Shown: positions 19,689 through 21,136 of the stretch, piece by piece
Numbering within the stretch: the stretch's first letter is position 1
Layout of the letters: each line of letters opens with the position of its first letter
Origin: Bryobacteraceae bacterium
GTDB lineage: Bacteria > Acidobacteriota > Terriglobia > Bryobacterales > Bryobacteraceae
Direction of reading: 5' to 3'
Length of the DNA: 64,000 bases
NCBI GenBank assembly: GCA_046289265.1
Contig: JBKBWD010000021.1
Location: 2,626-66,625 of the forward strand
Program-made: the position numbers and the translations under genes
The notes under the pieces: model-generated
Database searches by the model: none
The model's input: only the letters and a program-made list of their open reading frames with translations
Told to the model about the DNA's origin: nothing

Positions 19689-21136
19689 GCCAGCCGCTTG
19701 CGCACGCGCCGCCAGCCGTTGCCCTTGTCGAGCAGCGCGGACAGGCGCCGCACGGTGGAAGCATGTTTCGCGTCGGCAGCCACGTTCCGGGCGGCAAGCG
19801 GCCCGGACGCATGGTCGTAAAGTTCGCGGGCTGCGATCTCGCCGGTTTCGCGATGGATCCATTCGGTGTATCGCCAACGATCATGACGCAGCGAGTAACC
19901 CATGTGATTGCCCTGACGCGGGTACTGCGAGAAGGCTGCCTCCTTCCACGAACGGCGCGGATTATCGAGCAGAGGAACCATCGACGTGCCCTCGCAGTGC
20001 TCCGGGATTTCCAGGCCGCACAATTCCGCCAGCGTCGGATAGACATCGACGAACTCGACCAACGCCCTGGTCGAGGCGCCGCGCAGCTTCCTCCCCGGCG
20101 CGCGCAGCAACAGAGGCACGTGCGTGTCGATCTCGAAGTTGGTGTGCTTACACCAGGCGCCGTAGTCGTTGAGCTTCCACCCGTGATCGCCCCATAGCAC
20201 CACGATCGTGTTGTCCGCCAGTCCGAGACGATCCAACTCGGCGAGCACACGGCCCACCTGGGCGTCCATGTAGGAGACGCACGCCGCGAAGCCGTGGATC
20301 AGCTCGCGCGCCAGCCGGTCGGAGACCTTGCCGGTGGCCGGGATGCCGGCGTAGTTGCGCAGTTCGCCCCAGTTGGAGCGCGCGATCTCGGGCGAATCGG
20401 CCGGCCAGTCCGGCTGCGTCGCGATCCGGAGTTTCGCAGGATCGTAGAGGTCCCAGTACTTCTTCGGCGCGTTGAACGGGAGGTGCGGCTTGAGAAATCC
20501 CGCGGCAAGGAAGAAGGGGCGGTCTTTCAGCCGACGGAGTTCCTCGATGGCCCTGTCGGCGCTCTGTCCGTCAGGATAGGCGTGGTCGGCGACGTCGGGA
20601 CGTTCGTAAGCGGGCCCGCGGCCCGGCGCCTGTCCGGGCGCAGCCGCTGCCTTGCGCTCCTCGATGATCCTGATCGACTCCGGATCATAGTACGTTGCCC
20701 AGGTGGTCTCGGGGCGCCAGGGTCTGACGGACCATCCGCGCGGATCATCGTCGATGTGGTGATAAATTTTGCCGAGCGAGACGGTCTCGTAGCCGCTGTT
20801 GCGGAAGTGCTGCGGCATCGTGAGCAGGTCAGGCAGAACGGTACGCAGCGGCGTAACCAGATCGTAGACGCGCGTGGTATCGGGCCGCGCGCCGCTCAGC
20901 AGCGAAATCCGCGAGGGCGCGCACACCGCCTGCTGACAATAGGCGGCGTCGAAGCGCATCCCGGTTGCCGCCAGCCGATCGAGATTCGGCGAATGGATCT
21001 CTTGGTGGCCGTATCAGCCGAGGGTGGGCCGCAAATCATCAATCGCGAGGAAGAGGACATTGGGCCGGCGTGCCTGGGCTGCCGCCGTGGAAACGGCGCC
21101 GCAGGCAGCCGCGAGAAAGCTGCGTCGTGTGGTCAT
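19676..21136 (-). CDS. iduronate-2-sulfatase-like Tat-exported sulfatase interrupted by one in-frame TGA (21016..21014): pseudogene, sequencing error or recoded codon
   Basis: The ORF track shows only 19676..20959 ([17 protein letters not shown]..., with the formylglycine motif CAPSR). Reading the same frame upstream gives [65 protein letters not shown]. This comprises a twin-arginine signal, the DD metal-binding motif and a stop exactly where the paralog at 39113 has Cys (LGCYGH). Confidence 0.7.

Follow-up and report, generated by a model that had tools for sequence, protein, structure and literature searches.

A gene for an S1-type sulfatase lies on the reverse strand of a 64,000-nucleotide stretch of contig JBKBWD010000021.1 (positions 2,626 to 66,625 of the forward strand; assembly GCA_046289265.1, Bryobacteraceae bacterium), referred to here as the window. 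It contains an in-frame TGA at a position where its relatives encode cysteine, and it does so in a genome that is equipped to insert selenocysteine (Sec) at UGA codons. The question posed by this locus is whether the TGA directs the incorporation of Sec or has put the gene out of action. The reading favoured here, to which a probability of roughly 0.85 can be attached, is that a recent, strain-specific TGC to TGA nonsense mutation inactivated one sulfatase paralogue; the observation holds, and it is an ordinary one.

On translation, the sulfatase frame (19676..21136, minus strand) was found to run from an ATG at 21136 to a terminal TGA at 19678..19676, and comprises 486 sense codons and a stop. 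It is interrupted once, at codon 41, by a TGA at 21014..21016, beyond which there are 445 further sense codons; this is the sole lesion, with neither a second stop nor a frameshift elsewhere in the frame. The read-through protein matches the Pfam Sulfatase domain PF00884 over residues 25-374 (E = 2e-42), so that the TGA falls inside the domain, and an SGSH_C domain (2.6e-15) follows downstream. The signature motifs of an S1 sulfatase are both present, the CAPSR formylglycine motif at 20909..20923 and the metal-binding DD pair at 21035..21040, and the enzyme is assigned to the formylglycine type, resembling iduronate-2-sulfatase (IDS) and probably belonging to S1_7. For the intact allele of this gene described below, the nearest solved structures are the arylsulfatase PDB 6hhm (5e-133) and human iduronate-2-sulfatase 5fql (1.2e-80). 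In an initial annotation, made from the DNA letters alone, it had been proposed that the TGA interrupts a single sulfatase frame, that the open reading frame (ORF) listed for this region starts at an internal Met, and that no other lesion is present, with the DD and CAPSR motifs undamaged. All of this agrees with the translation, with the PF00884 match across the TGA, with the open state of the rest of the frame and with the location of both motifs. The same annotation had aligned the site without gaps against a paralogue at 39113, and here too it was correct: the paralogue, 39% identical, has LGCYGH where the sulfatase has LG-TGA-YGH, placing Cys opposite the TGA.

The orphaned N-terminus (21017..21136, minus strand) is a remnant of 40 codons, listed as a 40-codon ORF at 21014..21136, which houses a signal peptide resembling that of twin-arginine translocation (Tat) substrates (TRRSFL...AQA) and the first sulfatase strand with the DD pair. 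As for the twin-arginine signal claimed in the initial annotation, TRRSFL ... AQA can be seen by eye, but there was no match to a Tat-signal hidden Markov model at E <= 0.001 in either Pfam or NCBIfam. The remainder appears as a 427-codon ORF at 19676..20959 (minus strand), which takes an internal Met (codon 60) as its start and retains CAPSR without signal peptide or DD ligands; this ORF is a gene-caller artefact. The downstream ORF is represented in databases by P0124 and by P0002, the latter beginning at codon 47. In the NCBI-sourced P0002 (440 aa, MHSPNLD...) the codon taken as the start is ATC in the DNA (20996-20998), a non-standard start, and its use is an annotator's choice to salvage the ORF past the TGA.

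Clustering of the window's ORF product at 90% protein identity gave two further members, P0123 and P0124. P0123 is a full-length protein of 486 aa encoded on contig L080 of the Logan assembly of ERR14788557, and L080, the sister strain in what follows, aligns with the window at 98.68% identity over 8,999 nt with no gap. Codon 41 is TGC in L080 as against TGA in the window, and the two copies of the gene differ at 30 of 1,461 nt. P0124 lies on L081, a Logan contig of SRR31360857, which matches the window at every one of 13,284 nt, TGA included. The Cys at codon 41 was present in 29 of 29 homologues from 60 related genomes and in nine of the nine nearest database proteins; since every homologue examined has Cys, TGC is the ancestral codon and TGA the derived one. 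An alignment of orthologues had been proposed with the initial annotation as a means of looking for alternation of TGA and Cys at this column, and it revealed Cys in all of them, with TGC in the closest strain.

According to the favoured reading, a C-to-A transversion at the third position would have turned codon 41 from the Cys codon TGC into TGA, on the window's own lineage and within about 1.3% divergence. We infer that translation ends at this TGA in vivo, which would yield only 40 residues, comprising the signal peptide and the first 15 or so residues of the mature enzyme. Were translation to restart at the internal ATG at 20959, the product would be a cytoplasmic protein with neither signal peptide nor Asp-Asp metal ligands. 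A product devoid of export signal or metal ligands argues that the allele is a null one and the gene a very young pseudogene, which was among the three options originally put forward and is the one that accords with TGC in a 98.7%-identical strain and with the lack of any further lesion. The loss is likely to have been neutral or tolerated. The genome (6.04 Mb, 63.5% GC, a draft in 295 contigs) encodes at least four other sulfatases matching at E < 1e-60, and six matches to the FGE-sulfatase domain PF03781 (the best at 3.1e-87), so that a maturation enzyme is available. These numbers indicate that sulfatase function is redundant and that the enzymes are matured normally, and with several other paralogues present the loss of one is probably tolerable.

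In all this the gene resembles ordinary bacterial pseudogenes born of a single nonsense substitution, which are young null alleles segregating between strains: a lone premature stop breaks a frame that is otherwise whole, there is no recoding signal, a strain about 98.7% identical has an intact allele, and paralogues are there to cover the function. Its sole peculiarity by comparison with ordinary pseudogenes is that the stop is a TGA coinciding with a Cys codon while the genome uses Sec, and so mimics a selenoprotein gene. Apart from the interruption at codon 41 in the window strain, it likewise agrees with the IDS group of S1 sulfatases (human IDS, 5fql and 6ioz; bacterial 6hhm) in its Sulfatase and SGSH_C domains and in the motifs DDLRPxLGCYG and CxPSR. 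Annotation should accordingly treat the locus as one sulfatase gene that has been disrupted (a pseudogene), and neither as a protein of 427-440 aa nor as a selenoprotein. It would then be a trace of how a large set of sulfatases is still turning over in a lineage that probably belongs to the Acidobacteriota.

Several observations weigh against inactivation. The frame past the TGA is perfectly intact; the genome decodes UGA as Sec elsewhere; a TGA on an invariant Cys is the classical signature of a selenoprotein; and a second sulfatase, on the metagenomic fragment L063 discussed below, has a TGA in the same column within an open stretch. There is also no measurable relaxation of selection as judged by the ratio of non-synonymous to synonymous substitution rates (dN/dS) between window and sister strain: the value is 0.23 for the sulfatase gene, between the 0.19 of the adjacent TamB-like gene and the 0.34 of the partial upstream propeller gene. 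For a lesion as young as this one such a lack of relaxation is to be expected, yet it provides no proof of a pseudogene. A different picture is suggested by the 13 codon-level amino-acid differences from the sister strain, which were polarised by means of outgroups. About eight are derived on the window lineage (V32I, C41stop, T147A, N185H, T192S, Y283F, V377I and E480K) and only one or two on the sister lineage, and both V32 and Y283 are nearly invariant positions. This excess of derived changes on the window lineage hints at relaxed constraint, albeit on small numbers. The coincidence of TGA with a Cys codon can be put in proportion by counting. There are 148 single-base routes to a stop in the sulfatase gene, 29 of which give TGA, and eight of these 29 (28%) are at Cys codons, with seven of the eight Cys invariant in the family. 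With 28% of TGA routes falling on Cys codons, a TGA on Cys is not very surprising.

Among the alternatives, the one that fares best, improbable as it is, is that the TGA is absent from the DNA of the organism or from most of its cells, and stems from a consensus or base-call error, or from a minority variant fixed by the assembler, the true codon being TGC. The assembly is a draft of many contigs, and a single base separates its TGA from the TGC of the sister strain. Against this, the Logan contig of SRR31360857 was obtained by a different pipeline from the window assembly and gives the same 13,284 nt with the TGA, although the underlying reads may or may not be the same; and comparison with the sister strain shows the surrounding 9 kb to be free of indels and of other anomalies. 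Agreement of two assembly pipelines on the TGA argues against an assembler artefact, and the base-call error that had been offered as an option in the initial annotation is for the same reason unlikely, with the proviso that the reads are possibly shared.

Less probable still, and in our view very unlikely, is the proposal that the TGA is a Sec codon, so that SelB and tRNA-Sec, aided by an RNA element of non-canonical form, would place Sec at residue 41 and give a full-length Tat-exported Sec-sulfatase. Its attraction is that the TGA is aligned with an invariant Cys in a frame with no other lesion, in a genome in which the machinery is complete. A search for this machinery had been recommended at the outset, and it located tRNA-Sec at C227:34668-34759, with a score of 77.5 bits where the cut-off is 47, together with selA (488 bits), selB (400 bits) and selD (362 bits); selD has an in-frame TGA of its own. 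The presence of the full set means that recoding is not refuted at this level, and the decision rests on the gene itself.

The same genome provides a standard by which the gene can be judged. Four genes were identified in which a Pfam or NCBIfam domain extends across a TGA that lies in frame where Sec is classically found, and in each of them the TGA is followed by a selenocysteine insertion sequence (SECIS). In selD (C142:2665-3588, minus strand; KAAG-U-ASKL) the stem strands GUCCAAA and UUUGGAC enclose the loop GGU. A first AhpC/TSA peroxiredoxin (prx1, C268:1964-2341, minus strand; FTGG-U-TKE) has the loop GGC between GGCG-UACCA and UGGUA-U-CGCC, and a second (prx2, C54:273-668, plus strand; ADW-U-PYC) has GUG between CCAACUC and GAGUUGG. 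The fourth gene, a VTT-rhodanese fusion (C110:88458-89438, plus strand; LYCT-U-PNE), has the loop GUC between UGAGCGCCA and UGGCGCUCA. In all four the stem is of 6-9 bp, one of the four having a bulged U and four extra pairs, and the triloop has G as its first base and starts 21-24 nt after the UGA; the local windows of these elements fold at -12 to -17 kcal/mol. These hairpins are textbook bacterial SECIS elements. In the VTT-rhodanese protein, a membrane fusion of DedA-like type, the U sits in the active-site loop of the rhodanese. All four of these genes are probably broken up or cut short by standard gene callers.

The fusion gene came to light through a genome-wide scan for hairpins following in-frame TGA codons, which gave 671 and then 118 candidates and was so noisy that the counts have not been used. 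A count of stop-interrupted genes (TGA versus TAA/TAG) by codon-usage log-likelihood was also attempted and was dropped, coding and non-coding sequence not being separable at this GC content: the sulfatase site reached no more than 2.3 and 6.5, and spurious candidates got through the filter in their hundreds. No formate dehydrogenase of the Sec type was detected, none of the seven molybdopterin oxidoreductase matches of the genome (0/7) having an internal stop.

The sulfatase gene departs from this pattern. The hairpin to which attention had originally been drawn is present exactly as described, at 20981..21001 on the minus strand, starting 12 nt past the TGA, with a 5-bp stem (GAGAU/AUCUC) and an 11-nt loop, CCAUUCGCCGA, and this weak structure is a further point in favour of Sec insertion. 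This hairpin, whose spacing had been called SECIS-like, is nevertheless not a SECIS. The only contiguous stems of at least 5 bp are GAGAU/AUCUC and GCCGA/UCGGC (7-nt loop AUCUCGA), and neither of their loops begins with G. For the 70 nt beginning 3 nt before the TGA the folding energy is -18.8 kcal/mol, compared with -21.1 +/- 3.2 for shuffled sequences (z = +0.73), and for the local window after the TGA it is -8.4 kcal/mol (z = +0.12 against shuffles), so that the fold is no better than that of shuffled sequence. A SECIS is characterised by a stem-loop directly 3' of the UGA, its apical loop lying about 16-37 nt downstream and containing G, and this arrangement is not found in this gene; no strong hairpin with a G-triloop was found within 260 nt downstream of the TGA; and a scan of 20800..21200 against Rfam gave only sub-threshold chance matches, with no SECIS family among them. 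The sequence therefore lacks an element of the type carried by all four of the verified selenoprotein genes.

Comparison with the sister strain is also unfavourable to Sec insertion. In the region of the hairpin the only nucleotide difference is in codon 47, which is ATT in L080 and ATC in the window (20996-20998), and as a result the hairpin after codon 41 has 7 bp and a 7-nt loop in the Cys-encoding strain, against 5 bp and an 11-nt loop in the strain with TGA. Selection for a SECIS should have made the hairpin stronger in the strain with TGA, not weaker, and its greater strength in the Cys strain indicates that it stems from the protein-coding sequence and is no recoding signal. The occurrence of TGC in a strain 98.7% identical tells directly against a Sec codon as well.

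Other TGAs at this position were sought by scanning 185,579 species genomes with the motif DD[LF]-x5-TGA-[YF]G-x6-P-[NHKQ]-x-D, and the scan was repeated on 241 million metagenome records. The species genomes gave a single match, L060, and the metagenome records three, L061, L062 and L063. L060 (1000-2610, minus strand, in the complete genome of Mariniflexile sp. AS56, NZ_CP151839.1) is an IDS-like sulfatase pseudogene with many stops and frameshifts. L061 contains two TAG stops as well, and has Arg in place of the formylglycine Cys; it too is a pseudogene. L062 is a chance match at which there is no sulfatase. Two of the three other TGAs in the same column thus belong to decayed pseudogenes. 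The third, in L063 (JACKQG010203519.1, 1186-1248), is found in a different sulfatase subfamily, where the sequence reads DDLNTRLG-TGA-YGDPVAKSPNLD with the TGA in the same Cys column. L063 is a fragment of 1,332 bp whose frame is otherwise open for about 130 codons to the end of the contig, and the hairpin that follows the TGA, of 7 bp and with the loop AAA, does not qualify as a canonical SECIS. It may derive from a pseudogene or from a recoded gene, the fragment being too short to separate the two.

Among the best 120 matches in a collection of 5.8 billion proteins, all were full length save a few cut or mis-started entries, and the nearest from outside the species was 74% identical. No intact homologue bearing TGA was found among these 120 or in the 185,579 species genomes. 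One short entry, P0018 (459 aa), was considered as a second case and rejected, because its start has been mis-called and the frame upstream is intact, with a TGT Cys codon. At its locus (L058, 2831-4380; GCA_054024135.1, JBPMPI010000005.1) the protein is annotated from an internal codon; the true frame begins about 57 codons upstream with a Tat-like MPTRRRFLAAG... and includes an intact LNCYG.

The gene shares with bacterial selenoprotein genes, whether of the E. coli fdhF type or the selD, AhpC/TSA and rhodanese genes of this very genome, a UGA aligned with Cys and a genome containing selA, selB, selC and selD. It differs from them in having no SECIS hairpin, in that the UGA is not common even to the closest strain, in that the residue is neither redox-active nor catalytic, and in that Sec-containing members of its family were not found elsewhere. 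The Cys at codon 41 is not known as a catalytic residue in S1 sulfatases, the catalytic role being that of the cysteine in CAPSR, and this also counts against Sec insertion. It is very unlikely that Sec occupies a non-catalytic, invariant Cys position adjoining the metal site in a full-length, Tat-exported sulfatase of the TGA strain. Were it so, the enzyme would need either an element recruiting SelB that is unlike the four canonical SECIS hairpins, or a fresh switch from Cys to Sec within 1.3% divergence, and L063 would become the second member of the Sec-sulfatases. The initial annotation had ranked Sec insertion as the less likely option, a ranking borne out by the missing SECIS, by TGC in the nearest orthologue and by the stronger hairpin in the Cys strain. 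No Sec-containing sulfatase was found in the literature searched, and in a study that treats both topics there is no sulfatase among the selenoprotein candidates (PMC4807772). The standard signature for nominating new selenoproteins is a TGA that lies in frame where Cys is conserved, in a genome with the Sec machinery, and the present locus is a caution that this signature can arise by plain mutation; two checks, on the genome's own SECIS elements and on a near-identical strain, settled the matter here.

A residual function, maintained either by leaky read-through of the UGA by a near-cognate tRNA-Trp or tRNA-Cys or by re-initiation at the ATG at 20959 to give an N-terminally truncated enzyme, has in its favour that UGA is the leakiest of the bacterial stop codons, that the downstream frame is intact and that dN/dS is not elevated, but there is very little likelihood of it, given that a truncated enzyme would be without the export signal and without D33 and D34, the invariant DD metal ligands, that UGA followed by U is an efficient context for termination in E. 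coli, that selection is not expected to be sustained by read-through, which usually amounts to 1% or less, and that the derived V32I and Y283F stand at nearly invariant positions on the window lineage.

The disrupted sulfatase gene is flanked by genes of other kinds. Upstream, after a gap of 57 nt, there is a coupled pair encoding an S55-like peptidase and a protein with beta-propeller and Ig-like domains. On the other side the gene is convergent with a gene on the plus strand (window positions 12915-19688) for a TamB/AsmA-POTRA-Omp85 fusion of 2,257 aa, and the 3' end of this gene shares 13 nt (19676-19688) with the region of the sulfatase stop. The TamB-Omp85 fusion is conserved in the sister strain, with a dN/dS of 0.19.

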